IMG/VR virus record: IMGVR_UViG_3300037461_000170
Coordinates: 1 to 39,910 of that record
Strand: one strand, 5' to 3'
DNA length: 39,910 bases
Source of the DNA: a virus
Taxonomy: Duplodnaviria > Caudoviricetes
A model generated the notes under the pieces. That model was not told the origin of the DNA. It worked only from the letters and a program-made list of their open reading frames with translations, and did not search any database. This document shows positions 1 through 39,910 of the stretch, in pieces. A program made the translations under genes and the position numbers. Position 1 is the first letter of the stretch. Each line of letters starts with the position of its first letter.

Positions 1-1893
1 GGTGCTGTCGCGGCAACGGGCTTTGCGCCGACGGTATCGATACCGCGCTATGTGCGCGCGACATGGGCGAAGCTGGTTGCGCCCGCGGCAACCAATGACC
101 CGACCAGCGTCAGCCGCAGCCCGGCAGCCGCGTCGGTCGCAGCGACGGGCCTTGCGCCGGCGATTCAAGTCACAGCCCACGTCATCTGTTCGCCAGGCGT
201 TGGATCGGTCACGACAACGGGCTTTGCGCCGGTAGCGTTCCGACAGGATGGGGCATATCCGGGTGCCGGTACGGCGATGGTTACGGGTCTTGCGCCAACG
301 GCGGCCACGACCGAGCACCGCAATATCGCGGTGGCGGCAGGGTCGATCGTTGCCACCGGCTACGCGCCGAACGCGGACCGCACGGACAACCAGACGTGTG
401 CACCGCCGGTCGGGTCGATCGTTGCGCAAGGGTTCGCGCCGAGCCTGACGGCTGAGGCGCATCAGTTTGCGTATCCCGCTAACGCGAGCCTCGCGGTCAC
501 GGGGCTGGCGCCAACGGCAAACGCGACCGCGCACGTTCTGGCCTACCCTGGGGCCGGCAGCATCGCGGCTGTCGGGCAGACGCCGACGACGGGCGGCGAT
601 GTCATTGCCGAACCGGCAGCGGGCAGCGTCGTTGCCACCGGCTACGCGCCGAGCGCGACCAATAGCGGCGATCGTGCGCTGCGAGTGTCGTGGGCGCGGC
701 TGGTGGTCCCTGCGGCCGAGGGTAGCCGCACGTTGTATCCGGCGGCCGGCAGCATCGCCGCAGTCGGGCAAGCGCCGAGCACAACCGTACCGGGCAACAC
801 GAACGTCTCGCCGGGTGCGGGCAGCATTGCTGGCACCGGCTACGCGCCCACGGCGGGTTGGTATAGCGTCCTCATCGAGTGGTCGGATATCACTGGGGAG
901 GACGGATACAGAATCAAGTGGGGCACGGCCAGCGATACCTACTCGTGGTCGGCGGATGTCGCAGCGGATGCGACCAGCTACACGATCCGTGGGCTGGTGG
1001 GGACGCAGTTGTACTTCGTCCGCATCTACGGCCTCGTTTCCGGCGTCGAGCAGGATCCGTCGGCAGAGATCGTCCTGACGCCGCTGTACGGGTTCGTACC
1101 CGACCCGGCGACGATCGTTGCGCAGGGCTTCGCGCCCACGGTATCGGTCAGCGGCAACGTCTCGGCATCGCCGGCAGCGGGCAGCATTGCGGCGGTAGGC
1201 ATCGCGCCGACGGTCAGTGCATCCGCATACCAGACGGTTGCGCCGGGGGCCGCCAGCGTTGTTGTAGGCGGCTTTGCGCCGACTGCGGATGTCAGCAGTC
1301 CCAGCAATACCAATCGGTTGCCGGCGGCCGGATCGGTCGCGGCAGTCGGGCAAGCGCCGACGGTGCAGGTGTCCGACGTGCGTTCGGCATCGCCTGGGGC
1401 GGGGTCGATCGCGGCCACGGGCTATGCGCCCGGCGTAGAGGTCACGATACGCGCCGACGTGCCCGCCGGCAGCGTGGCCGTTGCCGGGTTCGCGCCGACG
1501 CTCGAACAGACGACGGCCGCAACGCTGGCGCCGGGCGCCGGCAGCATCGCAACGCAGGGCCTCGCGCCCACCGTGCAAGTCTCTGGCGGCGGGTACGAGG
1601 ACGATTACGGCTGGATACCTTCGGGCGGGTGGGAACACCGCAAGCCGAAGAAGCCGAAAACTGAATCTGAACGCGAGGCCGAGGAGCGCCAGGAAGCACC
1701 GGACGCCCCTGCGGTCATCACGCAAACGGCGCACACGCTGCACCTGCCACCGGATGTGCCGGTGGTGACGTATCCCACGCTTGATATGACGCCGTTGGTC
1801 ATACGCGAGCGCAAAGCCCTCCAGAAGTTGCGCGCGGCCCAGCTGCGCGCAGCCCTCGAGGCAGATGACGAAGACGTACTGCTGTTGCTGTAA
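1..1893 (+). CDS. Repeat-rich virion fibre backbone protein, C-terminal part (5'-partial; continues from 38832..39910)
   Basis: Frame 1 is open from base 1 (GAVAATGFAPTVSIPRYVRATW...). It has ~18 copies of P-x-x-G-S-[IV]-x-x-x-G-[FYLQI]-[AT]-P, an Fn3-like segment (~859-1083) and a charged tail ending DDEDVLLLL. Confidence 0.75.
   Translation, partial: GAVAATGFAPTVSIPRYVRATWAKLVAPAATNDPTSVSRSPAAASVAATGLAPAIQVTAHVICSPGVGSVTTTGFAPVAFRQDGAYPGAGTAMVTGLAPTAATTEHRNIAVAAGSIVATGYAPNADRTDNQTCAPPVGSIVAQGFAPSLTAEAHQFAYPANASLAVTGLAPTANATAHVLAYPGAGSIAAVGQTPTTGGDVIAEPAAGSVVATGYAPSATNSGDRALRVSWARLVVPAAEGSRTLYPAAGSIAAVGQAPSTTVPGNTNVSPGAGSIAGTGYAPTAGWYSVLIEWSDITGEDGYRIKWGTASDTYSWSADVAADATSYTIRGLVGTQLYFVRIYGLVSGVEQDPSAEIVLTPLYGFVPDPATIVAQGFAPTVSVSGNVSASPAAGSIAAVGIAPTVSASAYQTVAPGAASVVVGGFAPTADVSSPSNTNRLPAAGSVAAVGQAPTVQVSDVRSASPGAGSIAATGYAPGVEVTIRADVPAGSVAVAGFAPTLEQTTAATLAPGAGSIATQGLAPTVQVSGGGYEDDYGWIPSGGWEHRKPKKPKTESEREAEERQEAPDAPAVITQTAHTLHLPPDVPVVTYPTLDMTPLVIRERKALQKLRAAQLRAALEADDEDVLLLL
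344..398 (+). repeat. 55-bp exact direct repeat, identical to 39856..39910 (window end)
   Basis: CGATCGTTGCCACCGGCTACGCGCCGAACGCGGACCGCACGGACAACCAGACGTG occurs at both sites in the same codon phase. Confidence 0.95.
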
Positions 1894-1938
1894 CCGCTTA
1901 CGGGCAGCGCATGCCCGGCACCCTCACGGGAACCGAAG

Positions 1939-2769: not shown

Positions 2770-2787
2770 AACTCTTGAGGTAACACA

Positions 2788-4023: not shown

Positions 4024-4041
4024 CCGCCGGGAGACATCAAC

Positions 4042-4281
4042 ATGGCGACTTACGAACGACTGGACTACGGCAGCCCCGACGGCTGCCACATCGGCGGCAA
4101 CGCTTCGGACAAGGTGGGGTTCTTCGGGGCCACGCCGACTTCGCGGCGCGCCGCTGCAGCGCAGGCCACCTCCAACGTCGGCACCGCCTCGTCGGCGGAT
4201 GTGACCACGGGCCTCAAGGCGGCGGTGATCGAGATCATGGACACCCTCGCGGCGCTGGGCATCTGGAAGGGTGCGGCCTGA
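4042..4281 (+). CDS. Small capsid-associated protein (decoration/head-fibre-like)
   Basis: 79 aa immediately after the coat gene; GGAG RBS; VGFFGATP motif and C-terminal LAALGI helix. Confidence 0.5.
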   Translation: MATYERLDYGSPDGCHIGGNASDKVGFFGATPTSRRAAAAQATSNVGTASSADVTTGLKAAVIEIMDTLAALGIWKGAA

Positions 4282-4799
4282 TGTTGGTGAGGGGGGAGCA
4301 ATCCCCCCTCCGCATCTTGCATTGCGGGTGTGGGCGCGAGCCCCTGCCCGAGTGGATGGAGGGCGTCGAGACGAGGCTGGACATCGATCCCGACGCCCGC
4401 CCCCACGTCGTTGCAAGCATGACGGACATGGGGGAGATCGGGCCGTTCGACATGGTGTACTCGTCGCACGCGATTGAGCACTTGGCGGCGCATGAGGTGG
4501 TGCTGGCCTTGCAGGAGATGCGGCGCGTGCTCGTTCCCGGTGGACGTGTGGTGGTCATCGTGCCGAACCTGGACGGCGTGCGGCCGACGCTCGACGTGCT
4601 GTACGAGTCGGACGCGGGGCCGATCACTGGATTCGACATGATCTACGGGGCGCGCTGGCTGGTGGCGGCGAACTCTTACATGGCGCACAAGTCGGGATTC
4701 GTCGCTGAGACGCTGAAGGCAGTGCTTTGCGATGCCGGGTTCCGTGACGTGGATGCGGCGCCGCAGTCGTACAACCTCTATGGGACGGGAATTGCGTGA
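4281..4799 (+). CDS. Class I SAM-dependent methyltransferase
   Basis: ILHCGCG (motif I), RLDID, YSSHAIEHL and RRVLVPGG motifs. Confidence 0.85.
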   Translation: MLVRGEQSPLRILHCGCGREPLPEWMEGVETRLDIDPDARPHVVASMTDMGEIGPFDMVYSSHAIEHLAAHEVVLALQEMRRVLVPGGRVVVIVPNLDGVRPTLDVLYESDAGPITGFDMIYGARWLVAANSYMAHKSGFVAETLKAVLCDAGFRDVDAAPQSYNLYGTGIA

Positions 4800-5482
4800 A
4801 GGTCGTTTTCGCTACGCCAACGAGGGACCAGCCGAGCGCCCCCTACCTCTCCGCACTGGAGACCTGCCTGCCGGCGATCGAGGCCGAAGGATTCACGCAC
4901 CAGAACGTAAACGACATCGGATGCCCGTACATCTCGGCATCGCGCTGCCGGATGCTCGGCAAGGCGCTCAAGGTCGGATTCGATTACGTCGTGTTCATCG
5001 ATGACGACGTGTCATGGACGCCGGCCGACATGGTGAAACTGCTCAAGGCCGAAGGCGACGTGGTCGGCGGGACGTATCGATTCAAGAACGACGACGAGAC
5101 GTACATGGGCGTCCCGATGCTGGGCGCGACCGGTAGACCGCTGGTGCGGGACGACGGCTGTATCGAGGCGGATCGGCTGCCGGCGGGTTTCCTGCGCGTG
5201 TCATGGCGCGCGGTGTGGCGCTTCGCTGCGTCCTACCCGCAGCTGGTGGTGTGGGCCGATCCCGACCCGAGCGTGGACCTGTTCAATCACGGCGCGCATA
5301 CGGATGGGCTGTGGTGGGGCGAGGACTACTCGTTCTGTCGTCGCTGGCGCGGCCTGGGCGGTGATGTCTGGCTCGTGCCGGATCTCGACCTGACGCACCA
5401 CGGCAAGGACAAGGCGTATCCGGGGAACTATCACCGATGGCTGCTGAAGCAGCCTGGAGGGAGTGAACATGGCGCTAGCTAA
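4796..5482 (+). CDS. GT-A fold glycosyltransferase (GT2-like)
   Basis: VVFATP start, FIDDD DxD motif, AGFLRV, and WGEDYSFCRRW catalytic-base motif. Confidence 0.8.
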   Translation: MKVVFATPTRDQPSAPYLSALETCLPAIEAEGFTHQNVNDIGCPYISASRCRMLGKALKVGFDYVVFIDDDVSWTPADMVKLLKAEGDVVGGTYRFKNDDETYMGVPMLGATGRPLVRDDGCIEADRLPAGFLRVSWRAVWRFAASYPQLVVWADPDPSVDLFNHGAHTDGLWWGEDYSFCRRWRGLGGDVWLVPDLDLTHHGKDKAYPGNYHRWLLKQPGGSEHGAS

Positions 5483-6116: not shown

Positions 6117-6536
6117 ATGGCGACATTTAACAAAACGTATGCGGCGTCGGAGTACATTGCCGAGAGCACGCTGGACCTTGATCTGGACGACAAGTATATC
6201 TGTCTGACCAACACGGCGCCGACGACGGCGACGACCACGTATAGTTCGCTGACCGAGATTGCATCGGGCAACGGTTACACGACGGGCGGCAATGCGGCGG
6301 CACTGGTTACGTCTGCGCAGTCGTCGGGCACTTACAAGCTCGTTCTTACGTCGCCGGCAACGTGGACCGGGAGCGGCGCAGGCATGGCGACGTTCCGCTA
6401 TGCGGTGCTCTACCAAAACAGCGGCACGAAGCCGGTAGTGGGTTGGTGGGACTACGGTTCCGGCGTGACGCTCGCAGCGGGTGAGACGTTCACGGTCACG
6501 CTTGACGGCACGAACGGCGTGATTCAACTCGCCTAA
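6117..6536 (+). CDS. ~140-aa beta-rich fibre subunit (cassette B); paralogue of 35424..35858
   Basis: TEIASGNGYTTGG, TWTGSG, RYAVLY and VTLAAGETFTV...NGVIQL line up with GEISARGGYAANG, VFTASG, KFAVVG and FTVTSPNTLTIV...NGLFEM. Confidence 0.65.
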   Translation: MATFNKTYAASEYIAESTLDLDLDDKYICLTNTAPTTATTTYSSLTEIASGNGYTTGGNAAALVTSAQSSGTYKLVLTSPATWTGSGAGMATFRYAVLYQNSGTKPVVGWWDYGSGVTLAAGETFTVTLDGTNGVIQLA

Positions 6537-8866
6537 TGCCGCGTCGTCTGCGCATTGCGTTTCCCGGCGGCTCGCCGCAGGCGCCGCGCACGTTGAGCGG
6601 GGATCATGGGCGCTTCACGCTCACGGGCCGCGCGGCGGCGCTGACGAAAGAGGTTCCGCTCGTTGTTAATGACGTTTGGGAGCCGTTGTTTACAAGTAGC
6701 ACGATCGGCGCTAGTCCGACGATGGCGAACGCATGGGTAGCTGGGTGCGTTATCAAGACGACGGGTGAGTGGTTCTTTCCACATCAACAAGTGGCATCCT
6801 CTACGGGCGGTCCGTGGTTGTTTAATCCCGGCACATTAACGTGGCGGCGCACGAATACGAATACAACGGACTGGTGGAAAGGCATAGCCTTCCGCGAGAA
6901 TTACGATGTTTGCTACGACGCCGACCGCGATGTGGTGTGGATCAGCACGGGCGGTCCGGTTGGGTGGAATGGTGCGCCTAGTTCTCCGGTCTATGGCGGA
7001 ATGCGCTATGACTTAGCGACGGACGTTTTCTACAATGTATGGCCGCAATCGGATGGCACTTACGTTGCGACAACGGACGCGCAATACTTCCTGACCGCGA
7101 ACAAGGGTCTAGGGCTTAAAGGCTTCGACCATAAGTGGTTCTATGCCGGCGGCTATCTGTTTACGCTCGGCGGCTGGTCGGTCGGCGGCGATCAATCATT
7201 CCGCAAGATTGACCCGGCGACAAACGTCCAGACATCGCTAACGGCCTACGGTGCCGGGCTCCCGCCGATGAATCAGGACGACGGTCGCTACACGGTGACG
7301 CGCGCGTTCCGAGATTCGCGCAGCAATCGGTTCTATCTGTTCGCGGACGATGGGGCGCTTTACACCTACGACAACGTAGCGAGCGCGGCCACGCGAACGT
7401 GGCAACTGCTCACCACAACGGGCAGCGGCCCGGCGACGACGGTTGGCGATCCGACCGGGGGCGATACAGGCGGCGTGGTCTACGGCTGCGACGAGAACAG
7501 CAACAACATTGTTGCATGGGCGGGGTCAGGTCTGGTCATCGGCACGCCCGGTGGAAACTATAGGCGGTCATGGGTGCTTGACATGAGCACGCTGCAATGG
7601 CGTGCCGGTCCGAGCGCGGTAGGCGGTGATACAGTTCCTGGTCCCGGTGCAGCAGTGCAAATGTCGATCGACTATGACCCCGTAGGCAAGCGCACTATGC
7701 TCGCCTATTCCCCAGCGGGAACGTTTACGACCGAAATATGGGCATTCCGTGGAGGTTCGCCGCATCCTGGGAAGATCACCAGCTTCGCGTTGCCGGCGCA
7801 CGCAGGATCGACCTACGGCGTCAGCTATTACGGATATCCATACACTGCAAACGGTAGCAGCAAGCACACAAATATGTGCTACTGCCCGCTAGACAATCGA
7901 ATTTATGTAACCGGCGGTGATACGGCATCATCGGCAACCGATGGCGTATGGTCGGTGTCGCTTGTAGACGGTTCGTGGCGCCTAGATTATGGGCGCCCGG
8001 CATACCCCGAAACCGTCGCGCCGTTTGCTTATCAGGACAATGAGGGCTTGGAATGGGACAGCAATAGAAGCGCGTTTCTATTCTGGCCGGGCTCTGGCGC
8101 TTTTGGATACGGGCCTGCTAATACTGTTCCGACGAATTCGCCCTATGCAGAAGGAATGTGGTGGTTTGATCCCGTAGCGAAAAGCTGGACACAAGATACG
8201 ACGATGTTTTATGGGTATCTGGTTACTCTCGCATCACCTAATTCTACGGTAGGCAGTTCGGGCGCTTTCGCAAAAACGGGGATGATCCACGGCGGCATTT
8301 ATGATGCGCAGACGGACATCATTTACGCATCCACCAGCGTAGCCGGCATGAGCCGATATGACGTGGCGACGCGCACGCGGCTTGGCACAACGTCTTTCGT
8401 CGGATCGACCGCGAGTCCATTAGCCAGCACGGGTTATACCGGGGTGTATTGGGGCGAAACGAAATGGGAACGCATCGGCCGATGGATATATATGCCGACT
8501 GCACTATACAACGGGACGAATGGCTACTTAGCGCTGGCTAAGTACAACATCGACTCGCGGGCGTTTGTCTGGTGTGCGTTGCCGCCGATTCCGCAGTTTT
8601 CCGGCACGCCATCAATCAAGGAACAACGCATCGGCGTTTCCCGCGACACGATTGTGTGGCCGAAGACAGTCGGACCGGACGGCGTGATTAGCGGCATCTA
8701 CCTGTATGACACGGTCAACGATACGTGGCAGGTGGATACGCAGGTTCCCGGCTACGGCAACATGTTGTGCAATGCGATCACGTCGCTGCCGGACGGTCGC
8801 GTAGCGTTCTCCGGCGGTGTGTTCGGTCCGCAGATGACGCATATCTGGTTCTATGAGGCGTTCTAA
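6536..8866 (+). CDS. Large beta-propeller (Kelch-like) receptor-binding/fibre cargo protein
   Basis: Repeated GG...W/YD blades; Trp/Tyr/Gly-rich. The N-terminus carries one GRFTLTGRAAAL motif. Codon usage is visibly more AT-rich than the flanks. Confidence 0.6.
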   Translation: MPRRLRIAFPGGSPQAPRTLSGDHGRFTLTGRAAALTKEVPLVVNDVWEPLFTSSTIGASPTMANAWVAGCVIKTTGEWFFPHQQVASSTGGPWLFNPGTLTWRRTNTNTTDWWKGIAFRENYDVCYDADRDVVWISTGGPVGWNGAPSSPVYGGMRYDLATDVFYNVWPQSDGTYVATTDAQYFLTANKGLGLKGFDHKWFYAGGYLFTLGGWSVGGDQSFRKIDPATNVQTSLTAYGAGLPPMNQDDGRYTVTRAFRDSRSNRFYLFADDGALYTYDNVASAATRTWQLLTTTGSGPATTVGDPTGGDTGGVVYGCDENSNNIVAWAGSGLVIGTPGGNYRRSWVLDMSTLQWRAGPSAVGGDTVPGPGAAVQMSIDYDPVGKRTMLAYSPAGTFTTEIWAFRGGSPHPGKITSFALPAHAGSTYGVSYYGYPYTANGSSKHTNMCYCPLDNRIYVTGGDTASSATDGVWSVSLVDGSWRLDYGRPAYPETVAPFAYQDNEGLEWDSNRSAFLFWPGSGAFGYGPANTVPTNSPYAEGMWWFDPVAKSWTQDTTMFYGYLVTLASPNSTVGSSGAFAKTGMIHGGIYDAQTDIIYASTSVAGMSRYDVATRTRLGTTSFVGSTASPLASTGYTGVYWGETKWERIGRWIYMPTALYNGTNGYLALAKYNIDSRAFVWCALPPIPQFSGTPSIKEQRIGVSRDTIVWPKTVGPDGVISGIYLYDTVNDTWQVDTQVPGYGNMLCNAITSLPDGRVAFSGGVFGPQMTHIWFYEAF

Positions 8867-9546
8867 TGGCGATTGCCTTCGATGCAACGAGTGGCTTGAC
8901 GCCGGGATGGGCAACGTCGAGCACGTTCGCGCATACCTGTAGCGGTTCTGATCGTCTGCTGCTGTTCTGGGTGTTCTTTGACCGTGGCGCAGGGACGTAC
9001 AACGTATCGTCCGCAGCCTATGCGGGAGTCGCCATGACGCAGATTGGTACGGTGACTGACTCAGCGCGGCATGTCGAGCTATGGGCTCTCGCGGGCCCGG
9101 CGTCGGGTACGAATAACGTCGTGGCGACGTACAACAATACGGGGCCGACCGCGAAGCTCATTATCCGCGCGGTGTCGTATAACGGGGTAGACGGCACGAC
9201 GCCCTATGGAACTTTCGCATCTGCAACCGGATTCACGACCTCGGCGACGGTCAATGTCGCGAGCGCGACGGGTGAGATGGTCGCGGACTTCTGCGGCGTG
9301 CAGAGTGGGGGCGCGTCGATCACGGTCGGATCGGGGCAGACATCGCGGTATGAAATCGACGGCGGCGCGAGTGGCGTCGGGGCGGTGGGATGGAGCGATG
9401 AGCCAGGGGCCGGGACGGTCACGATGTCATGGAGCGGATGGATTACGGATAACTGGCTGATCGGCGCGATTCCGCTCAAGCCCGTTGGCGTCGCCGCAGG
9501 TGGCGTGCCGAAGACAACGAAGCAAACTTTGTTGGGAGTGGGTTAA
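8866..9546 (+). CDS. Ser/Thr-rich beta-sandwich virion accessory protein
   Basis: HTCSGSDRLL, YAGVAMTQI and SYNGVD motifs; C-terminal TLLGVG; TAATG-coupled to the upstream gene. Confidence 0.55.
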   Translation: MAIAFDATSGLTPGWATSSTFAHTCSGSDRLLLFWVFFDRGAGTYNVSSAAYAGVAMTQIGTVTDSARHVELWALAGPASGTNNVVATYNNTGPTAKLIIRAVSYNGVDGTTPYGTFASATGFTTSATVNVASATGEMVADFCGVQSGGASITVGSGQTSRYEIDGGASGVGAVGWSDEPGAGTVTMSWSGWITDNWLIGAIPLKPVGVAAGGVPKTTKQTLLGVG

Positions 9547-10059
9547 ATGGCTGATGACTTCGTAGGTGGTTCCTATACGTTCGCGGGCGATGAAATCTCG
9601 TCTAAGGTATACGCGCGGATCAAGCTGATCCACGGCGCGGACGGGGTGAACGCGGGGGACGTGGCGCTTGCCAATCCGCTGCCGACGACGCCGATCGGCA
9701 TCGCCACAAACGGCCTGACGATCCATCGCTCCATTGACCTGGACGAGTCCGAGGAAGAAGTTAAGGCGACGGCGGGCGTGGTCTACGGCATGTGGGTGTG
9801 CAATCTCGCCACGACGACGCGCTATATCAAGTTCTACAACGCGGCAGCGGCCGACGTGACGGTGGGCACGACGACGCCGGTCATCACCATCCCGATCCCC
9901 GGCAATTCAGCCGACGACGTGAGCGGAGCGTTCAACGTCGGCGGGATGGGGATCGGATTCGGCACGGCGATCTGCATCGCTGCGACGACGGGGCTGGCGG
10001 ACAACGATACCGGGGCACCGAGCGCCGGGGATGTCGTGGCGAACGTGTTCTTTAAATGA
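9547..10059 (+). CDS. Virion accessory/fibre protein
   Basis: 170 aa, beta-rich (VKATAGVVYG, YIKFYN, VTVGTTTP, GIGFGTAI); lies inside the tail cassette. Confidence 0.55.
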   Translation: MADDFVGGSYTFAGDEISSKVYARIKLIHGADGVNAGDVALANPLPTTPIGIATNGLTIHRSIDLDESEEEVKATAGVVYGMWVCNLATTTRYIKFYNAAAADVTVGTTTPVITIPIPGNSADDVSGAFNVGGMGIGFGTAICIAATTGLADNDTGAPSAGDVVANVFFK

Positions 10060-10823
10060 CCTTCGGTCCTGCCCCGCTGCCGTCCATCGGGTTGCTGTAT
10101 GACCCGACGGCGTACGAGCCGGGGCTATTTGCCCTTAGAGGATACAAAGCGGAACTGCTCTACGGCCGTAAGCTCGCGGCCGAGTATGCCGAGTACGCGA
10201 TCACCGGGCAGGATGCCGATCTTACGAAGGACACGCCGACGCCGATCGGTGCGGGTCCGCTGCCGCCGTTCACCTACCTGACGTTCGGTGCGGCAGGCGT
10301 ATCCGTCATGCCGGCGGAGACGGGCTACTACGCGCTCAACGGGCAGGCAGCGGCGTTGCTCAAGGGTCGCGGGCTGACGGGCGAGCCGGGGCTGTGGACG
10401 ATCAGCGTGGCGCCCGCGCTGCGCGACATTGAATTGACCGCAGCGGTGCGGTTGTTCCAAGTGCTCGGGCAGGATGCGACGATGACCTGGGCGCGCGGCA
10501 TGGCCGGGGCGTATGGCAGCTATACGCTGACCGGGCAGGCGGCGGGATACGTCCTCGTTTCCGGCCCTGATCGCAGCATGTCGGCAGACCCCGGTCGCTG
10601 GTACATGAACCTTATTGACCGATTGCCTCCCGGTGTCGGCTATGAAAACGCAACGCTGATCTATACGCGGCAATTGCAATGCGACGCAGGGGTGTTCACG
10701 TTGACGGGGCAATCCGCGACGTTAGCGGGGCCAGTATGGTCCGATGTGTCGGATAGTTCGGGCACATGGACCTATGTCACGCCGGGCGGGGGAGTGTGGA
10801 TAGATGTCGATCCAGATAGTTGA
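10056..10823 (+). CDS. Repeat-containing fibre backbone protein (cassette B)
   Basis: About 7-8 copies of G-x-[YFW]-x-L-x-G-Q-x-A-x-L, two GPxPLP/GAGPLP motifs and a C-terminal W-x-x-V triplet. Confidence 0.6.
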   Translation: MTFGPAPLPSIGLLYDPTAYEPGLFALRGYKAELLYGRKLAAEYAEYAITGQDADLTKDTPTPIGAGPLPPFTYLTFGAAGVSVMPAETGYYALNGQAAALLKGRGLTGEPGLWTISVAPALRDIELTAAVRLFQVLGQDATMTWARGMAGAYGSYTLTGQAAGYVLVSGPDRSMSADPGRWYMNLIDRLPPGVGYENATLIYTRQLQCDAGVFTLTGQSATLAGPVWSDVSDSSGTWTYVTPGGGVWIDVDPDS

Positions 10824-30644: not shown

Positions 30645-31860
30645 CTTCCTCTGGGACACGCAGGCCGACGATGGCCTGCCGGTGCGCTACCGCGCCGTCC
30701 ACGGAGGACGCGGGTCCGCCAAGTCGCACAGCTTCGCCCAGGCGCTCGTGCTGAAGGCGGCGGAGCGCCCGCTGCGCATCGGCTGCTACCGCGAGATTCA
30801 GCGCAGCATCCGCGATTCGGTCAAGCGACTGCTCGACGACAAGATCCGCGACAGCGGCCTGTCGGCGTTCTTCACCTCCACCGACACCGAGATCCGGGGT
30901 GCGAACGGCAGCCTGTTCGTGTTCGCCGGCCTGCGCACCAATCCCGATGCTGTGAAGTCCACCGAGGGCCTGGACATCGCGGCGGTGTTCGAGGCCAACC
31001 GCGTCAGCCAGCGCTCGTGGGAACTGCTGATCCCGACGGTGCGCAAGGAAGGCAGCGAGATCTGGGCCGAGTGGAACCCGGAAGCGCCGACGGACCCCGT
31101 TGACCAGCTGTTCCGCAACGCGGACAAGGGGCCGCCGCCGGGGTCGATCATCCGGCAGGTGAACTGGGAGCAGAACCCGTTCTTCCCGTCCGTGCTGATG
31201 CAGGAACTTGAGTGGGACCGCAAGCACGACATCGACAAGTACCTGCACATCTGGGCGGGCGGCTATGTCACGCACTCCGAAGCGCGGGTGTTCAAGAACT
31301 GGACGGTGGAGGAGTTTGAAAGGCCCGCTGGGACGGTCTATCGCATGGGCGCGGATTGGGGCTACGCGATCGACCCGTCGGTGCTGGTGCGCTGCTCGAT
31401 CGACGGCAAGCGCCTCTACATCGACCACGAAGCCTACCTCGTAGGCTGCGAGATCGACCAACTGCCCGACCTGTTCGACCGGGTGCCGGAGTCGCGCAAG
31501 TGGTTCATTACCGCCGACAGCGCGCGGCCGGAGACGATCAGCTACATGCGCAAGCATGGCTACCCGAAGATGAACGAAGCGGTGAAGGGCGCCAAGTCCG
31601 TCGAGGAAGGGGTCGCGTTTCTGCAATCGTTCGACATCGTCGTGCATCCTCGTTGTACGCACACGATCGACGAACTGACGATGTATCGCTACAAGCGGGA
31701 TCCGCTCACCGATCAGGTGTTGCCGGTGCTTGAGGATCAGAACAACCACGTCATCGACGCGCTGCGGTATGCGTGCGAGGGCGCGCGTAAGGCGCTGCGG
31801 CCGAAGTCGGACGCGCCGAAGGTTAACTTTGTCGGAGGCGATGCATGGATGGGAATGTGA
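30607..31860 (+). CDS. terL: Terminase large subunit (PBSX/Terminase_3 family)
   Basis: Walker A GGRGSAKS, CYREIQRSI, Walker B-like AVFEAN, nuclease GADWG and NHVIDALRY. Confidence 0.95.
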   Translation: MSRSSVSLPAAFSFLWDTQADDGLPVRYRAVHGGRGSAKSHSFAQALVLKAAERPLRIGCYREIQRSIRDSVKRLLDDKIRDSGLSAFFTSTDTEIRGANGSLFVFAGLRTNPDAVKSTEGLDIAAVFEANRVSQRSWELLIPTVRKEGSEIWAEWNPEAPTDPVDQLFRNADKGPPPGSIIRQVNWEQNPFFPSVLMQELEWDRKHDIDKYLHIWAGGYVTHSEARVFKNWTVEEFERPAGTVYRMGADWGYAIDPSVLVRCSIDGKRLYIDHEAYLVGCEIDQLPDLFDRVPESRKWFITADSARPETISYMRKHGYPKMNEAVKGAKSVEEGVAFLQSFDIVVHPRCTHTIDELTMYRYKRDPLTDQVLPVLEDQNNHVIDALRYACEGARKALRPKSDAPKVNFVGGDAWMGM

Positions 31861-33998
31861 AAGCGCCGGCAAAGAGCAAGGGCGATGACGCGATCCTCGA
31901 GGAAGCGCGCGAACGCTTCAAGCTCGCCAAGGATGCGGACGCCGAGAACCGCACCGCCGCGCTCGATGACATCCAGTTCGCCTGGAACCTGAACGACGCG
32001 CAGTGGCCCGACTCCGCAAAGAAGTCGCGCGCCGGGCGTCCGCGCCTGACCGAGAACCGGCTGCCGCAGTTCATTCGGCAGGTGGTGAACGCGCAGCGCA
32101 TGAACCGTCCCAGCATCACGGTCGCGCCGGTCGATAGCCAGGGCGATCCCGAGGTGGCCGAGGTGTACGAGGGCATGATTCGGCACATCGAGCAGGTATC
32201 GAAGGCCGACCTTGCCTACGACTCCAGCTTCGAGGCGGCGGTGACTGGCGGAATCGGCTACTTCCGCGTCACCACGCGCTACGTTCCCGGCGAGGGCGGG
32301 AATCAGGAACTCGCCATCCTGCCGATCGACAACGCGTTCAGCGTTTACGACGACCCGTACTACCAACTGCCGGATGCCAGCGACCGCTCATGGTGCTTCG
32401 TTACCGAGTGGGTCGATCGCAAGGAGTTTCCCGCGCGCTACGGCAGCGACCCGTCGCCGTGGGAGGAAGGTGGCACGGGCGACCAGGATCAGGACTGGGC
32501 CGACGAGAAGCGCGTCCAGGTGGCCGAGTACTGGCGCACGAACGGGGATGCCATCGAGCAATTCGTGCTGACCTGCGACCGCATCCTGTCGCGCTCGCAG
32601 TGGGCGGGCACGAAACTGCCGATCATCCCGGTGCTCGGCGAGGTCAAGAACATCGAGGGCAAGCGCTGGCGCAAGAGCCTGATCCGCGATACCAAGGATC
32701 TGTGCAGGGTCAATAACTACTACCTGTCGGCCGAGGTCGAGGCCGTTGCCTTGCAGCCGCGCACGCCATTCATTGGCCCGACGGGCGCATTCGAGACCGA
32801 TGCGGCGAAGTGGGCGACGGCGAATGTCGCCAACCACGCATACATCCAGTACGACCCGGTCGAAGGCGCGATGCAGCCGCAGCGCACCGAACCGCCGACG
32901 TTCCCCGCTGCATTCCGCGAGACGCGCCTCGGCGCCATCGAGGGCATCAAGGCGGTCATGGGCATCTATGACGCGAGCCTGGGTGCGCGCAGCAACGAGA
33001 CCAGCGGCGTAGCGATCGAGGCACGGGCGCAGCAGGGCGATCTGGCGACGTATCACTACCTGGACAACATGACGCGCGCGATTCGGTACGCGGGCGAAGT
33101 GCTGATCGAGTTGATCCCGAAGATCTACGATGCGCCACGCGTGGTGCGGATCATCGCCCCGGATGGAGAAGCCGCGATGGTGGCGGTCAATCAGGTGTTC
33201 GTCGATCCGCGCACGATGCAGGATCGCAACCTGAACCTTGCCAGCGGGCGCTATGACGTGGTGGTCAAGGCCGGCCCGTCCTACCAGACGCAGCGGCAGG
33301 AAGCGAGCACCAAGATTGCCGAACTGGTGAAGGGCTACCCGCCGCTGGCGCAGATTGCCGGCGATCTCCTGTTCCGCAATCTCGATATCCCCGACGCCGA
33401 CAAGATCGCGGACCGGATGAAGCCGCAGAACGAACTCCCGCCGCAGGTGCAGCAGCAGATGCAGCAAATGCAGCAGATGATGGAGCAGGGCAAGCAGTAC
33501 ATCGCGGACCTGGAAGCCAAACTGCAAAAGGCCGAGATGACCAGCGCGGGCAAGGATCTGGACAAGAAGAAGGTGGAACTCGAACTCCAGGCCAAGAAGG
33601 CGCAAGACGAACTGATGTCGGGCGATACGACGGGCGAGGAATTGCTGCGGCTGCGCACCGACAACGCCACGCTGAAGATCCAGAACCAGATGGCGAAGCT
33701 GGAGAAGATGGCGCTCGAACTCGGCATGCGCGAGACGCGCATCAGCGAGAGCGAGCAGCAGATGGGACTTGGACCGGCGGAACCGATCCAGGCGCCGGAT
33801 GTGTCGATCGACGATGGCCCCGACGAGAAGACCATGCTGCGCATGATTGCCGAGATGATGCAGCAGATGCAGGCGCATATGGTAGCGCCGAGGAAGATCG
33901 TGCGCGGGCCGGATGGCAAGGCGGCCGGGGTGGACATCGGGGGCATGATGCGAGTGATTGAACGCGACGCCGAAGGGCGTGCGGTGGGGCTGCACTGA
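31845..33998 (+). CDS. Portal protein, P22-like
   Basis: 717 aa; RPRLTENRL, NETSGVAIEARAQQG and YDVVVKAGPSYQTQRQE motifs; long C-terminal coiled coil. Confidence 0.92.
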   Translation: MDGNVKAPAKSKGDDAILEEARERFKLAKDADAENRTAALDDIQFAWNLNDAQWPDSAKKSRAGRPRLTENRLPQFIRQVVNAQRMNRPSITVAPVDSQGDPEVAEVYEGMIRHIEQVSKADLAYDSSFEAAVTGGIGYFRVTTRYVPGEGGNQELAILPIDNAFSVYDDPYYQLPDASDRSWCFVTEWVDRKEFPARYGSDPSPWEEGGTGDQDQDWADEKRVQVAEYWRTNGDAIEQFVLTCDRILSRSQWAGTKLPIIPVLGEVKNIEGKRWRKSLIRDTKDLCRVNNYYLSAEVEAVALQPRTPFIGPTGAFETDAAKWATANVANHAYIQYDPVEGAMQPQRTEPPTFPAAFRETRLGAIEGIKAVMGIYDASLGARSNETSGVAIEARAQQGDLATYHYLDNMTRAIRYAGEVLIELIPKIYDAPRVVRIIAPDGEAAMVAVNQVFVDPRTMQDRNLNLASGRYDVVVKAGPSYQTQRQEASTKIAELVKGYPPLAQIAGDLLFRNLDIPDADKIADRMKPQNELPPQVQQQMQQMQQMMEQGKQYIADLEAKLQKAEMTSAGKDLDKKKVELELQAKKAQDELMSGDTTGEELLRLRTDNATLKIQNQMAKLEKMALELGMRETRISESEQQMGLGPAEPIQAPDVSIDDGPDEKTMLRMIAEMMQQMQAHMVAPRKIVRGPDGKAAGVDIGGMMRVIERDAEGRAVGLH

Positions 33999-35422
33999 TG
34001 CTGAAGCTGGGCGTGAGCGGCTTTGCGCCGTCGGTGGAGATCAAGCCGTACAACCCGGAACTGCGGAAGTATGTGCGCGCGTGGGACGAGATCCCGGCGT
34101 ACCGGGTGGTCTCACCCGGTGAGACGCTGGCGACGCGGTTCCTGCACCAGGCGCAGCCGCCGAAAGATGCGGACGCGATCGACTTCGGCTGCGGGACCGG
34201 GCGCGGCGGGCTGATGCTGGCGCTGATGGGCGGGATGCGGGTGACGCTGGTGGACTTCGCCGGCAACTGCCTCGACCCGGAAGTGGTCGAGATATGCAAG
34301 ACGCAGCCGGATCGGCTCAAGTTCATGCAGCACGACCTGACGCAGTTGCTGCCGATCAATGCCGCCTACGGGTACTGCTGCGACGTGATGGAGCACATCC
34401 CCGAGGCGGACGTGCAGAAGGTGCTCATCAACGTCCTGCACTCGGCGCGGCACTGCTTCTTCAGCATCGGCACGGAGCCGGACAACCTGGGCGCCGAGAT
34501 CGGCGAAGTGCTGCACGTCACGGTCAAGCCGGCGGCGTGGTGGAAGGAGCAGCTTGCCAAGGCGGGTGCGGTCATCCACTGGCAGGAGATGCACGAGGGC
34601 GGGGTGTCGTTCTACTGCTCGGCGTGGCGCGATGCCAAGGACGTGCTGGTGGCCGGCATCGTTAATGTCCCGCTCGACGTGCTCGAAGCGCAGACGGCGG
34701 CCAACATCCGCGCCGAGTACCGGCAAGTGCTGCCGCACCGCAAGCAGGACCGGGAAGTCATCGTGCTCTGCGGCGGGCCGTCGATGCCGGCGCACCTGGA
34801 CGAGATCAAGAAACTACGCGCCGAAGGGGCCGCGCTGGTGACGGTCAATGGGGCGTATCGGTGGGCGATCGAGCAGGGGCTGGAGCCGTCTGCGCAGATC
34901 GTGCTTGACGCGCGCGAGTTCAATGCGCGGTTCGTGGAACCTGTGACGCCGTACACGCAGTACATGATTGCGTCGCAGGCGCACCCGGCGACGTACGCCG
35001 GCCTGCCGTGGGATCGCACGTTGCAGTGGCACTGCGCGATCAGCGACGAGAACGCGGAGTTGGTGCGCGAGGTTCACGGCTGCTACTACCCCGTGATGGG
35101 CGGATCGACGGTGACGCTGCGAGCGATCCCGTTGCTGCGCATGTTGGGCTACTGGCGGATGCACCTGTTCGGGTTTGACTCCTGCATGGTGGGCGAGCAG
35201 CACCACGCCTATGCGCAGGCAGAGAACGACGGCGAACGCACGGTACCGGTGGTGTGCGGTGGCAAGACGTTCGTGTGTGCCCCGTGGCACCTGTCGCAGG
35301 CGTCGGAGTTCCAGGACATCCTTGGCATTCTCGGCAATGAGGTGGAGTTGGCGGTATACGGGGATGGATTGATCGCGGCCATGATGCAGTCGGGGGCCGA
35401 TTTCTCACAGAAGGAGCAATGA
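33998..35422 (+). CDS. Fused SAM methyltransferase + DUF115/Maf-like glycosyltransferase
   Basis: N-terminal IDFGCGTG and CCDVMEHIP; C-terminal VLCGGPS, VNGAY and GGSTVTLRAI...LGY..MHLFGFDS. Confidence 0.75.
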   Translation: MLKLGVSGFAPSVEIKPYNPELRKYVRAWDEIPAYRVVSPGETLATRFLHQAQPPKDADAIDFGCGTGRGGLMLALMGGMRVTLVDFAGNCLDPEVVEICKTQPDRLKFMQHDLTQLLPINAAYGYCCDVMEHIPEADVQKVLINVLHSARHCFFSIGTEPDNLGAEIGEVLHVTVKPAAWWKEQLAKAGAVIHWQEMHEGGVSFYCSAWRDAKDVLVAGIVNVPLDVLEAQTAANIRAEYRQVLPHRKQDREVIVLCGGPSMPAHLDEIKKLRAEGAALVTVNGAYRWAIEQGLEPSAQIVLDAREFNARFVEPVTPYTQYMIASQAHPATYAGLPWDRTLQWHCAISDENAELVREVHGCYYPVMGGSTVTLRAIPLLRMLGYWRMHLFGFDSCMVGEQHHAYAQAENDGERTVPVVCGGKTFVCAPWHLSQASEFQDILGILGNEVELAVYGDGLIAAMMQSGADFSQKEQ

Positions 35423-35423
35423 C

Positions 35424-35858
35424 ATGGCCGCATCGGCATTCAGTCTGTACAACGCCGCAAAGAAGTACATCATGAATGGGACTATCGTATTGGGCACGAC
35501 GGCGCTGAAGCTCAAGCTCTGCAATAGCGCGAGCAACGCGGCGACGCTCACCCTGTCCACGTTCGCTTCGGTGACGGGCGAGATCAGTGCTCGCGGTGGC
35601 TACGCGGCCAATGGCGATGCGCTGCAGAGCATGGAAGTGACCAGCGTGCTGTCGGCGAAATCGTACTCGTTCGACGCGGCCGATCTCGTGTTCACGGCGT
35701 CGGGTTCGTCGCTGATCAACGTCAAGTTCGCGGTGGTCGGGGTGAGCGGCGGCAAGGCGCTGTGCTACTCGAAGCTGTCCACGTCGCAGTTCACGGTCAC
35801 GAGCCCCAACACGCTGACCATCGTGTTCAGCGCCAACGGCCTGTTCGAGATGCACTAA
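35424..35858 (+). CDS. ~144-aa beta-rich fibre subunit (cassette A); paralogue of 6117..6536
   Basis: AAGGAG RBS; FDAADLVFTASG motif; collinear with the 139-aa protein. Confidence 0.65.
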   Translation: MAASAFSLYNAAKKYIMNGTIVLGTTALKLKLCNSASNAATLTLSTFASVTGEISARGGYAANGDALQSMEVTSVLSAKSYSFDAADLVFTASGSSLINVKFAVVGVSGGKALCYSKLSTSQFTVTSPNTLTIVFSANGLFEMH

Positions 35859-35861
35859 CGC

Positions 35862-37697
35862 ATGTACGCGCTGCCGACCGATCGGGCGACGACGTGGCGG
35901 CCTGGGCTCACGCATAACGGAGGCTTTCCGCATGCGTCGTGGCCGCTGCGGTCGGTGCTGTCGTGGGCTAGTGGCGATCAGGTGTCGCGCATTCAGTCCG
36001 AGATAGACGCGGCACATTCGGCGTATCCGAACGGCGTTATCGTGCGTCTTGCGGCAGGGACGTGGAATCTAAACGGCGGTGATCTGTCGATCCCGTCGAA
36101 TACGGTCTTGCGCGGCGCAGGTCTTTCGGGTGGCGCGCAGTCCACGATCCTGACCTGTACCAACGGGGCGACGGACAACAGCTACCAGCCTGGGGCGCGT
36201 GGTTACACGCCGCTGATTACGGTCGGCACGGGCGGCAGTTACGGCACCAGCGTTGCGTTGTCGTCCAATGCGAGCAAGGGTGCAGAATCGGTCGTGGTGG
36301 CGTCGGCGTCGGGCTTGTCCGTCGGGCAGTACGTGCTGATCGACGAGTTATCAGGCGCCGGCTGGCAGACGGACCCGCAGGGGCTTGGGCAGATTTGGGC
36401 TAACGCTGACTTTAGCGTGGTGTGGCAGCGCCATAATCCGGGGCTTGCTACGGACGATCCGTACCCGGATGCCTGGTCATGGTTTTGTCGTGACGATCGC
36501 CCGCAGAACGAGATCAAGAAGATTTCCAACGTTTCGGGGACCACGATCACGTTCGACTCGCCGTTGCACAAGGGCTACACGACGGCGCGCACTGCGCAGT
36601 TGACGCCCTATAGCGGCATCGTCACGAATGCGGGCGTCGAGGATCTTGCGTGTTCGCATGGCAGTAACGGAAACATCAGGCTCACGGGCGCCGCGTATTG
36701 TTGGGTTGCGAGAGTCGATGCCTCGCATTGGCTGAACGAGAACATCTGTATTGACCATTCGTTCCGCTGCGAACTGCGTGACTCTTACCTGCACGATGCG
36801 TGCTGGCCCGTGCCAGGTGGTGGTGGATACGTCATTTCGATGGGATGGGCAACGTCCGAAGTGCTCATCGAAAACAATATCTCCTATTGGGCATGCAAAA
36901 ACATCGTCGCGCGCAGTGCGGGGACGGCGAGCGTCGTCGCGTACAACTACATGGACGTGGCGTTTGACGATGGTTTCGAGGACTGGCAAGAGGTTCATCT
37001 GAATGCCAGTCACATGGTCGGCCCTCATCATGTGCTGTTTGAGGGCAACTACGCGCCGAACGCGGACAGTGACAAGACGCATGGCAACGCGACTTACCAC
37101 ACGTTTTTCCGCAATCATTTGAGTGGAGTGAGAAAGGCGTATACGTCGTACAGCAACGTCTCGCACAACGATGCCACGCAAGGTGCCGGCATGCAACGAT
37201 GCGCCGGCATGGCAGCATTTAGCCGATACCATTCGTGGGTCGGTAACGTGCTCGGGCGTTCGGGGCAGATGTCGGGTTGGGGTTACGAGGACACCACAAA
37301 CTCTGGGATGGTCAGCGGGACCAATTCTATTTTCGTCTTTGGCTGGGACGACTGGTATTCGTCATACCCAACGGTGGACCCCGACGTGGACTTGTTGGCG
37401 ACCATCTTGCGCGATGGGAACTTCGACTATCTGACGAACTCGGTGCGCTGGCACGACGTTGGCGGATCTGGGGAGCAAACGACGCCGCCGGCCGATAGCG
37501 CGCTGCCCGACTCGCTGTATCTGTCGAGCAAGCCGAGTTTCTTTGGCTCGTACACATGGCCGTGGGTTGAGCCGACGGAGACGACGAAGCTATACACGCT
37601 GCCTGCCAAGCAGCGGTTTGAAGACGGCGATTATTTCGACATTCTCGACGCGACTGCATTGCCGGGTCCGACTAACGTGCGTTGGAGGCCGGCGTAA
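35862..37697 (+). CDS. Pectin-lyase-like beta-helix protein (putative polysaccharide depolymerase/adhesin)
   Basis: RIQSEID...VRLAAGTW...IPSNTVLRGAG start; beta-helix rungs (LIENNI, LFEGNY, FFRNH); C-terminal LPGPTNVRW. Confidence 0.75.
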   Translation: MYALPTDRATTWRPGLTHNGGFPHASWPLRSVLSWASGDQVSRIQSEIDAAHSAYPNGVIVRLAAGTWNLNGGDLSIPSNTVLRGAGLSGGAQSTILTCTNGATDNSYQPGARGYTPLITVGTGGSYGTSVALSSNASKGAESVVVASASGLSVGQYVLIDELSGAGWQTDPQGLGQIWANADFSVVWQRHNPGLATDDPYPDAWSWFCRDDRPQNEIKKISNVSGTTITFDSPLHKGYTTARTAQLTPYSGIVTNAGVEDLACSHGSNGNIRLTGAAYCWVARVDASHWLNENICIDHSFRCELRDSYLHDACWPVPGGGGYVISMGWATSEVLIENNISYWACKNIVARSAGTASVVAYNYMDVAFDDGFEDWQEVHLNASHMVGPHHVLFEGNYAPNADSDKTHGNATYHTFFRNHLSGVRKAYTSYSNVSHNDATQGAGMQRCAGMAAFSRYHSWVGNVLGRSGQMSGWGYEDTTNSGMVSGTNSIFVFGWDDWYSSYPTVDPDVDLLATILRDGNFDYLTNSVRWHDVGGSGEQTTPPADSALPDSLYLSSKPSFFGSYTWPWVEPTETTKLYTLPAKQRFEDGDYFDILDATALPGPTNVRWRPA

Positions 37698-38827
37698 TGG
37701 CGACTCGGGTAGGCAACTGGACGGTCTTTGAGGACGACGCGCCGGGAACTGCGACCGTCACGACCGCATCGCGCACGTCGACATCCGGCAACTTTATCGT
37801 TGTGTTCGTGAAGTGGGAAGACACCGGCACGACGCTGCACTCGACAACGCCGATTAGTGACTCGCGTAGCAATGGCGGATGGGTCAAGCTCGCAGAGGTC
37901 AACTATGGCGGCACTGGCGAGCCTCGCGGCGCGATGTTCTACTGTCCGAACATCACGGGCGGGTCGAGCCACACGATTAGTATTCAGTTCAGCAACACCA
38001 GCGCTGGGTACGTTCAAATTTTCGCTGAAGAATGGTCTGGGCTCGCAACGTCGTCGCCCGCCGATCAATCGGTGCAGACCAATACCGGCATCGGGACGCA
38101 GCCCTATGCTACAAGCGCGATCACCACGACGGAAGCGGGCGTCGTGTTCTTCGGGATTAGCGAATACAACGCGCTAAGTGCAATCAGCGGCACAGCGGGA
38201 GACCCGGATTTCACTATTTCGCTGACAGCAACGTCATCGTTCTTTGCGTACTACATTAGCGGTTCGGCGCAGACGATCACGCCCGGAGCGACAGCAACAG
38301 GCAATTCAACGTGGGTTGCCATTGCGCAGGCGTTCAAAGATGCCAGCGGAGTAACGAATACAGATCGTTCGCCCGGGGTCGGCTCATCGGTTTACGGTGG
38401 CCTCGCCCCGTTGGTCAATCCGCAGTTTGCCTCGCCGTCGGCCGATGCCAGCGACGGCAACTGGACGCCGAGCACCGGCACGGACCTGTACGCGGTCATT
38501 GACGAGACGCTGCGCAGCGATACGGACTATGCGCAGTCGGGCACGAACCCGTCGGGTGACGCGATGATTGTCAAGCTGGCGACGATCAACGATCCAGACA
38601 CGGACGCCGGCCTGCATCTGCAATGGGCGGCGGGCGCGATAGGGCAGACGGGGCAGGTGGTCGGCAGCATCCGGCAGGGCAACAGTCCCGGCACCGAGAT
38701 CGCGGCGTGGACGCACACGAACCTGCCCGTGGGGAGTTATCAGGAATTTGACGACGCGCTGACCTCGACCCAGGTGGGCAACATCACCGACTGGTCGGAC
38801 CTGTATCTGAAGATCGTCGCGAGCTAA
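37697..38827 (+). CDS. Two-domain Ser/Thr-rich fibre accessory protein
   Basis: GGAGG RBS and TAATG coupling; one GxAP unit (PGVGSSVYGGLAP) lies between two beta-rich domains. Confidence 0.6.
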   Translation: MATRVGNWTVFEDDAPGTATVTTASRTSTSGNFIVVFVKWEDTGTTLHSTTPISDSRSNGGWVKLAEVNYGGTGEPRGAMFYCPNITGGSSHTISIQFSNTSAGYVQIFAEEWSGLATSSPADQSVQTNTGIGTQPYATSAITTTEAGVVFFGISEYNALSAISGTAGDPDFTISLTATSSFFAYYISGSAQTITPGATATGNSTWVAIAQAFKDASGVTNTDRSPGVGSSVYGGLAPLVNPQFASPSADASDGNWTPSTGTDLYAVIDETLRSDTDYAQSGTNPSGDAMIVKLATINDPDTDAGLHLQWAAGAIGQTGQVVGSIRQGNSPGTEIAAWTHTNLPVGSYQEFDDALTSTQVGNITDWSDLYLKIVAS

Positions 38828-38831
38828 CGCC

Positions 38832-39910
38832 ATGGCCGGCACGCCGCTGATCGAATCCGGCGATTGCACGAACAGCGGCAACAACACGGCGAGCACGTCG
38901 TGGGCGATTGACCGGCCGGCGCAGGCGGCTGGCGATCTCATCATCTGCCATCTGGTCAGCGATGCGAACGTCACGCATGGCACGCTGCCCGCTGGGCCGA
39001 ATGGCGAGACGGCCGTCGTCATCGCGCAGCACATTGGCGATACCGGGACGGCGACGGTTCGCGTTTCGGTCTGGTACTGGGTAGCAACGGCATCGGCGTC
39101 GGCCGGGACGGTAACGGTCACGCCGAGCGCGACCGAACAGTGGACGGCAACGGTGGCGCGGGTGCCGGCGGGCGAGTTCAGTCCGTCAAGCCCGATCCAA
39201 CATAGCAACTATAACGAGGCGGCGACGACGGGGGCGCCGGATTGCCCCTCGTTCACGGCGACGGCGGCCAATGGACGGCCGGTGTTCTTTGCCGGGATCG
39301 ACGCGGATACCTGTACCGGCATCAATGCCACTTCGCCCAGTTGGACGCTAGCGGCGAATGTGGACCGTGGCGCGGTGACGGGCGTGCTCGCGGTGCGCGA
39401 TACGCTCTCGACGGCGAGCGAGGCGATTTCGTCGGGCGCGTTGACCGGCGTCGATGATGGGCGGGTGGCGGTCGGGTATCTCATCAATCCCGACATCAAC
39501 ACGAATTACGCGCCTGCGCCGGGGTCGATTGTTGTCTCCGGCTTTGCCCCGACGGCTAACAACGGCGAACGGTCGGTGCGCGTCACCTGGGCGCGGCTGG
39601 TCGTGCCCGATGCGGGCATCACGAACACGAACGTCGCCCCGGCCGCTGGAACCATCGTTGCCAGCGGGCAGGCGCCGACGATCCGGCGGGATCACATTTG
39701 CACGCCGGGGGCGGGAAGCATCGCGGCGCAGGGTTTCGCGCCCGTAGCGCAGCGCGCCGATAGCGTCTTTCCGGCAGCCGGCAGTATCGCGGCGGCGGGA
39801 CAGGCGCCCACGGCCAGCGTCACGGACGTGCGCAATATCTCGGTGGCGGCCGGGGCGATCGTTGCCACCGGCTACGCGCCGAACGCGGACCGCACGGACA
39901 ACCAGACGTG
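38832..39910 (+). CDS. Repeat-rich fibre backbone protein, N-terminal part (3'-partial; not in ORF track)
   Basis: ATG 38832 (MAGTPLIESGD...) is open to the window end. An N-terminal beta domain (AGDLIICHL) is followed by 5 GxAP repeats of the same type as in 1..1893. Confidence 0.8.
   Translation, partial: MAGTPLIESGDCTNSGNNTASTSWAIDRPAQAAGDLIICHLVSDANVTHGTLPAGPNGETAVVIAQHIGDTGTATVRVSVWYWVATASASAGTVTVTPSATEQWTATVARVPAGEFSPSSPIQHSNYNEAATTGAPDCPSFTATAANGRPVFFAGIDADTCTGINATSPSWTLAANVDRGAVTGVLAVRDTLSTASEAISSGALTGVDDGRVAVGYLINPDINTNYAPAPGSIVVSGFAPTANNGERSVRVTWARLVVPDAGITNTNVAPAAGTIVASGQAPTIRRDHICTPGAGSIAAQGFAPVAQRADSVFPAAGSIAAAGQAPTASVTDVRNISVAAGAIVATGYAPNADRTDNQT

Follow-up and report, generated by a model that had tools for sequence, protein, structure and literature searches.

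What structure is built from the five genes that lie between the portal and the scaffold gene of the virus IMGVR_UViG_3300037461_000170? The window, i.e. the whole stretch of 39,910 nucleotides (nt) that was analysed, is the entire record in one contig and reads as a near-complete podophage genome. An earlier interpretation of this DNA (the original prediction) had placed a five-gene cassette between portal and scaffold, and indeed all five genes are on the plus strand, as are all cassette features given below, and are tightly packed between the P22-like portal gene (31845-33998) and the scaffold gene (1939-2769), with stops and starts of neighbours overlapping or nearly touching. They encode a 474-amino-acid (aa) enzyme fusion, a 144-aa subunit (the bead), a 611-aa beta-helix protein, a 376-aa cargo protein and a long repetitive backbone (the rope). 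We consider it quite probable that the cassette encodes a chain-like branched fibre, in which subunit dimers sit on the repeats of the rope and cargo is plugged in via a strand donated by the rope.

To characterize the contact between bead and rope, we predicted the complex of two subunit copies (35424..35858; 137-row alignment) and one 34-aa repeat stretch (69-row alignment). The predicted complex scored 0.85, whereas the best of three controls scored 0.14; for calibration, 116 of 157 solved complexes attained the mark for such scores, compared to 2 of 215 mismatched pairs. The runs shared at least 97% of their contacts, with a partner predicted local distance difference test (pLDDT) value of 86, and the repeat stretch had a pLDDT of 86 with the subunit and of 30 when the subunit was replaced. 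In this model, strand 130-135 of the subunit pairs with rope residues 7-12 and 24, and the rope strand would thereby augment the sheet of the subunit. Each of two prolines located 12 residues apart contacts residues 116 and 134 of one copy, and the two imposed copies bind equivalent half-sites through nearly the same residues. Because each proline touches residues 116 and 134 of one copy, one repeat would offer two half-sites for one dimer. The original prediction had described the backbone as a scaffold clamped by the subunit; the interface that this implies is predicted here, and the clamp gains further support from the fold match to gp80 of phage GP4 described below. The proposed ratio of one subunit per repeat has to be changed, as the model places one dimer on each repeat.

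The association of beads with repeats extends well beyond this phage. The 165 subunit loci that we collected were reduced to 53 by dereplication at 90%, and 30 of these had at least 4 kb of downstream DNA. Periodic repeats, 4-40 in one frame, were present in all 30, in agreement with the anticipated co-occurrence of the subunit family with GxAP-repeat genes, and at least three periodic repeats were found in only 1 of 70 loci that carry the docking domain of the cargo (see below) without the subunit. Minus-strand frames proved unsuitable as a repeat control and were dropped, since repeated DNA gives periodicity on its reverse strand as well (3 of 8). Genes, repeats and motifs thus exist and travel together in many phages.

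The subunit belongs to PHROG 644, whose profile covers residues 1-143 (E-value 7.7e-15). This family comprises 2237 clusters at 50% identity, and 805 of 883 candidates proved to be relatives of the subunit. Among GenBank phages 209 records matched, 205 of them named Mycobacterium phage; in the cultured mycobacteriophages MooMoo and Pat3, the subunit gene lies 3' of minor tail genes with like repeats. The AlphaFold2 model of the subunit (pLDDT 89) consists of a helix (residues 10-17) and beta strands. When compared with 48,161 chains by VIA-align, it matched seven with a Z of at least 5, every one a virion protein of a tailed virus, including fibre I of GP4 (8JOU_a; Z 9.3, root-mean-square deviation (rmsd) 2.9, 118 residues aligned), the Bxb1 tail tip (9D93_Ra; Z 8.4) and the Sf14 neck (9C39_K; Z 7.0). 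The subunit therefore shares the fold of GP4 gp80 and stands outside its sequence family. The idea that N-terminally longer subunits are fusions with repeats proved wrong. A bead fold (template modelling (TM) score 0.78) is also present in the BFVD entry J7FA76, within a 502-aa structural protein of the Agrobacterium phage 7-7-1.

The cassette had been proposed to represent a new kind of system. This cannot be upheld, since rope-and-bead fibres have been solved in GP4, Bas63 and A1002, according to PMC13730344 and PMC12609058. In A1002, proteins of 147 and 171 aa make up 11 dimers, every one of which builds an augmented beta-sheet with the rope; in GP4, the rope has a gene of its own and carries five dimers (PMC13730344). 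The whisker dimers of Bas63 are beads on a string, their incomplete sandwiches being completed by the rope (PMC12609058). The present locus has the bead fold, the predicted sheet augmentation and a linked rope with tandem sites of 22-26-aa period, and its core design is likely the known one.

The rope is visible in the window in two pieces. The first part (38832..39910) starts with a domain of about 220 aa that falls into unnamed viral clusters and contains five GxAP repeats and one strand of the RVxWAxLxVP type (39579..39608); the second part (399..1893) has 13 GxAP repeats, another such strand (682..711), an Fn3 domain and a C-terminal tail. In the two visible pieces as originally read (38832..39910 and 1..1893) we counted 5 + 18 = 23 G[FYLQI][AT]P units with a spacing of mostly 22-26 aa; 2000 residue shuffles gave 0.36 motifs on average and never more than 3. 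The periodic units proposed originally are thus real, although the full pattern PxxGS[IV]xxxG[FYLQ]AP fits only 11 of the 23; 19 of the 22 complete units have a second proline 12 residues ahead of the GxAP proline, i.e. at the distance seen in the complex model.

The length of the rope depends on how the window ends are read. The window has no terminal repeat, and its positions 39513-39908 can be aligned colinearly with 1-396, with identity at 73 of 136 aligned aa. Segment 1..343 is an alternative version, an allele or a tandem copy, of 39513-39855 with four repeats and a third socket-like strand (55-84), and it is followed by a 55-nt stretch (344..398) with which the final 55 nt of the window are identical, the loop point of the assembly. 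A direct circular join of the ends was rejected: it shifts the reading frame, and the terminal repeat is missing. In a 4712-nt Logan contig (depth 10) from the probable source run, position 39910 passes straight to 399, with window 37600-39910 at contig 291-2601 and window 319-2509 at contig 2522-4712, whereas window 45-219 forms a separate 175-nt contig of half the depth (5) in the same run. About 88% of this run was covered, and it is not independent of the window; the small-share sequencing runs X2-X4, which reach no more than scattered pieces, were left out. Since the contig joins 39910 directly to 399, a path that yields 857 aa, 18 repeats and two sockets, we conclude that the rope probably has this form and that 1-343 lies outside the majority molecule. 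The earlier totals of about 990 aa, 23 repeats and three RVxWA motifs were probably inflated by counting this segment twice. A less probable alternative, which still deserves attention, is that 1-343 is a true tandem copy, arisen by tandem duplication and followed by a short unassembled gap, which would lengthen the rope to about 994 aa, raise the counts to 23 repeats and three sockets and leave the mechanism unchanged. About four missing codons would restore the regular 24-aa spacing at the junction, and 73 of 136 identical residues is divergent for alleles; the contig that crosses from 39910 to 399 and the separate half-depth piece speak against it.

The rope ends in a basic stretch followed by an acidic-then-leucine motif (1804..1890), which is a candidate virion anchor. 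The rope ends of two relatives (L001 and L005) resemble this tail, and the remaining ropes end otherwise, their C-termini differing by group. Just upstream of 25 loci (63 chosen neighbours scanned), a portal-type gene (portal PHROGs or phrog_332) was found in eight and an adaptor gene in four, with capsid, connector or lysis genes in others. For the rope described here, the gene position hints at an anchor near the head or portal region. In a large related group (many of L020-L081), ropes end in repeated W-x-x-[IV]-N-D-x-Q-T-P-N-W units, another candidate anchor motif; their genes come after one for an adaptor and one for a second PHROG 644 paralogue. At L010:14040-18758, L177:4826-9328 and L005:10788-14855, the ropes are very long (1355-1572 aa), and about 30-40 repeats were counted in them.

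The branches are expected to come from the cargo gene (37697..38827). It had been listed as a 381-aa open reading frame from 37682, but P0271 and the gene junction make a start at 37697, and thus a 376-aa product, more likely. The protein consists of an N-terminal domain of no known family, a single GxAP repeat (38360..38410), which would be one bead site on the branch, and a C-terminal docking domain (38408..38824); repeat-like units stand at the equivalent place in the homologues P0272-P0278. The docking domain is a jelly roll resembling carbohydrate-binding modules (CBM) that, according to its alignment with a fused form (L085), is one strand short at its end. Four of its 92 matches were partial and were set aside; with redundancy removed, the remainder comprises 12 fused forms, 42 split ones and 12 in which the domain is internal. 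In the 12 fused forms, the RVxWAxLxVP motif follows directly at the point where the 42 split forms stop. The socket motif was found in another frame in 26 of 39 split loci and in 0 of 76 subunit loci without the docking domain, and it occurs loose, up to seven times per gene, only in loci with a split domain. With a strict motif drawn from the fused forms alone, the counts were 16 of 51 compared to 0 of 77, and with a loose motif 31 of 51 compared to 4 of 77 (seven duplicate and four unrelated loci were left out of these counts). Docking-domain relatives are present in four subunit loci (L002, L007, L011 and L013), whose ropes bear a VxW strand. In the model of the fused form (pLDDT 95), the motif is strand 146-155, and the fold is a CBM-type jelly roll (CBM16 2ZEW; Z 11.2, rmsd 3.2, 128 residues aligned, with many ties), so that the docking domain is putatively of the sugar-binding type. 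The comparison of fused and split forms supports the original assignment of the motif as a cargo socket; from it we infer that RVxWAxLxVP is the last strand that is absent from the docking domain of the 376-aa cargo and would pair with it in trans. No fused docking domain was found among proteins longer than 668 aa. At L085:7998-10484, a docking domain runs on into the socket strand, after which come rope repeats of the GP4 type; the next genes encode a gp80-like protein and a 91-aa protein similar to the 93-aa protein of GP4. The same mount thus serves both bead families. Beside split docking domains, four to seven loose socket strands can occur within one gene (L118:10134, L131:4487, L102:4224 and L116:10445), which suggests multi-cargo ropes.

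In chaperone-usher pili, a neighbouring chain donates the one strand that a domain needs for completion. The docking proposed here would work like this donor-strand complementation without belonging to that system: the receiving domain is a CBM-like jelly roll and not the immunoglobulin (Ig) fold of pilins, the donor strands are inside the rope, and no chaperone, usher or pilin family was detected among the 26 window proteins scanned with Pfam and PHROG. Full-text searching, with most subscription journals outside its coverage, found no literature on strand-donating branch sockets, and neither the passages from the Douge paper nor the Jabs abstract dealt with ropes.

Two types of socket had been proposed, the second being the Fn3 domain of the rope (856..1071). 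This domain had been described as incomplete, and it is: it matches only positions 12-81 of 84 of PF00041 and, compared to four full Fn3 domains, misses the first 12 or so columns with strand A. A candidate donor of this first strand is the C-terminal 12-aa tail (37659..37694) of the 611-aa protein (35862..37697), a right-handed beta-helix protein with features of pectate-lyase/GH55-like clusters (ESM Atlas features 0.98, TM 0.87) that is likely a cargo. No relatives of this protein were found in the viral, metagenome, genome, phage and plasmid collections or in the collected loci. In a ranking against four natural Fn3 first strands, the only references used, the tail was number 93 of 8810 11-mers and second of 26 C-termini, and several of the rope's own repeats outranked it. 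A tail pattern, chosen after the fact, occurred in 2 of 2933 frames; hhalign found nothing (0.2%), and Pfam gave no match to the tail. Split Fn3 relatives amounted to one weak viral match in an unrelated tail protein and five weak phage matches. Whether the tail completes the rope Fn3 is close to evenly balanced.

The 474-aa protein (33998..35422) combines a class I methyltransferase (PF13649) with an MptE-like domain (PF01973; 49.8 bits, cut-off 34.6), both above the Pfam cut-off, and is a candidate fibre-modifying enzyme. A PF01973-like half is encoded upstream of the subunit in each of the 40 non-redundant loci whose upstream DNA spans 2.5 kb or more and ends no more than 150 nt from the subunit in 35 of them; the methyltransferase half is present in 37 of the 40. 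We take PF01973 to include the Maf flagellin glycosyltransferases, and no solved Maf chain was matched by sequence. Ser and Thr make up 24% of the subunit and 7-17% of the portal, terminase, scaffold, adaptor and coat proteins. Linkage and composition hint at a putative transfer of sugar to Ser/Thr of the fibre.

Several observations weigh against a branched rope-and-bead fibre. The phage is uncultured and known here from its genes alone. The complex score may reflect the resemblance to rope-and-bead structures that have been solved, and the prediction, with its two imposed copies, was unlike the calibration set. In VIA-align, the subunit is matched best by a chain from a T4-like baseplate (9F4A_AY; Z 12.7), and the bead fold is therefore used elsewhere in virions; in Foldseek, GP4 ranks first with an E-value of 0.049. 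Sequence similarity to GP4 gp80 was not detectable (1.6 bits with a 137-sequence profile), and searches of solved structures with the subunit sequence and two profiles gave nothing meaningful. In 10 docking-domain loci with a weaker subunit match, six have fewer than three GxxP repeats, and four carry three or more. Most control loci come from a single related group (one cluster holds 98 of the 165 subunit loci), and the loose socket motif was shaped after examples had been seen. The modules of MooMoo, Pat3, GP4 and L085 have no enzyme fusion next to them, which makes it dispensable for this type of fibre. Finally, in 13 of the 39 split loci the socket motif is missing from the DNA covered. 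This last point would be explained if the fibre were an unbranched rope with beads, the RVxWA strand and the Fn3 domain being relics or structural parts and the 376- and 611-aa proteins attaching elsewhere on the virion. The weak ranking of the Fn3 tail fits this as well, and the pairing of cargo and socket was deduced from a comparison of fused and split forms. We nevertheless regard an unbranched fibre as improbable, because the motif is the terminal strand of all 12 fused forms, its loose copies are confined to loci with a split domain, and the cargo itself bears a bead repeat. Self-folding of the repeats into a beta-solenoid or beta-roll, with the 144-aa protein as a separate collar or baseplate-type protein, is highly improbable: periodic Gly/Ala-rich repeats often form solenoids and the baseplate match would suit such a role, but lone repeats sit between domains in the cargo protein, the repeat loses its high pLDDT when the subunit is replaced, and subunit and repeats occur together in every one of the 30 loci.

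For the branched fibre, we propose the following mechanism. The 144-aa protein is predicted to form dimers that are threaded on the rope at its repeats of 22-26 residues, each repeat providing two 12-residue half-sites, one per monomer. With one dimer per repeat, fibre length would be set by the repeat number (4-40 in relatives, 18 here), and the 18-repeat rope would take about 36 subunits. Each RVxWAxLxVP strand would complete the docking domain of one 376-aa cargo, as the fused and split forms suggest. Since the cargo carries its own single repeat, it would take one more dimer, giving a short branch tipped by its N-terminal domain. The beta-helix protein may dock on the Fn3 domain through its tail, and the methyltransferase/PF01973 fusion would, judging from gene linkage, modify the Ser/Thr-rich fibre. 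With several different tips on one fibre, the likely task is host-surface sensing and adsorption. A further-reaching version can be put forward only tentatively: a gene-programmed, branched and enzyme-decorated fibre, in which overall length, branch length and two orthogonal kinds of branch (the last strand of a CBM-like domain and the first strand of an Fn3 domain) are encoded and the constantly linked methyltransferase/Maf-type fusion coats the beads with sugar. If true, such a fibre would be a natural plug-and-play display platform common to many unrelated phages.

The proposed mechanism gives a testable function to the large unnamed family PHROG 644, including minor tail genes in about 200 records of cultured mycobacteriophages, and can therefore be tested in laboratory phages. 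Rope-and-bead fibres, so far with 2-11 dimers, would reach dozens of repeats, with a ten-residue strand as the way of hanging different host-binding heads on one fibre. If it is right, phage host range could shift when cargo genes and short strands are exchanged, and strand and domain together would amount to a natural peptide tag.

Of the known systems, GP4 fibre I (PDB 8JOU) is similar in the subunit fold and size (144 vs 140 aa), in the separately encoded rope, in the completion of dimers by rope strands (here predicted) and in the Gly-rich units of similar period in the gene adjoining gp80. It differs by its sequence, which is not detectably similar, by the signature of the repeat (here PxAG...GxAP) and by its five dimers compared to 18 repeats; the present cassette adds sockets, an Fn3 domain, cargo genes and a linked enzyme fusion and is located in the head module. 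A1002 (gp39 nozzle-rope with 11 gp40/gp41 dimers), likened here by description as its chains were not among the fold-search matches, has a long rope, an augmented beta-sheet per dimer and inserted globular domains, as well as two subunit paralogues per genome (here at 35424 and 6117); its rope is part of the nozzle, and no side cargo is mentioned in the sections covered (PMC13730344). The collar-whisker of Bas63 and Sf14 (PDB 9MT4, 9C39) shares the N-terminal helix and the incomplete sandwich completed by the rope, and differs in having two dimers per rope, an Ig-like collar fused to the rope and no branches. MooMoo gp19-21 and Pat3 gp26-28 include true PHROG 644 homologues (34-37% identity) 3' of genes with like repeats and cargo domains; they have two to three repeats per protein, a tail-tip position and no methyltransferase/PF01973 fusion, and no solved structure of these minor tail proteins was found. 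The present locus combines beads, sockets and a bead-bearing branch on one rope, in a sequence family distinct from gp80.

Besides portal and scaffold, the window encodes a terminase (from 30607), a P22-type coat protein (from 2788) and an SU10-type adaptor (from 5463). A second methyltransferase and a weak GT2-like gene (4281-5482) lie 3' of the coat gene and may form a virion-decorating set with the 474-aa fusion. A second rope-and-bead cassette (6117-10823) is located between the adaptor and the likely nozzle gene. It consists of a 139-aa PHROG 644 paralogue starting at 6117, a 776-aa Kelch-propeller protein that has a single repeat close to the N-terminus, and a rope of 255 aa whose repeat is of another kind (Gx[FY]xLxGQ type) and whose end is rich in Trp. 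One genome thus carries two cassettes with two bead types and two repeat codes.

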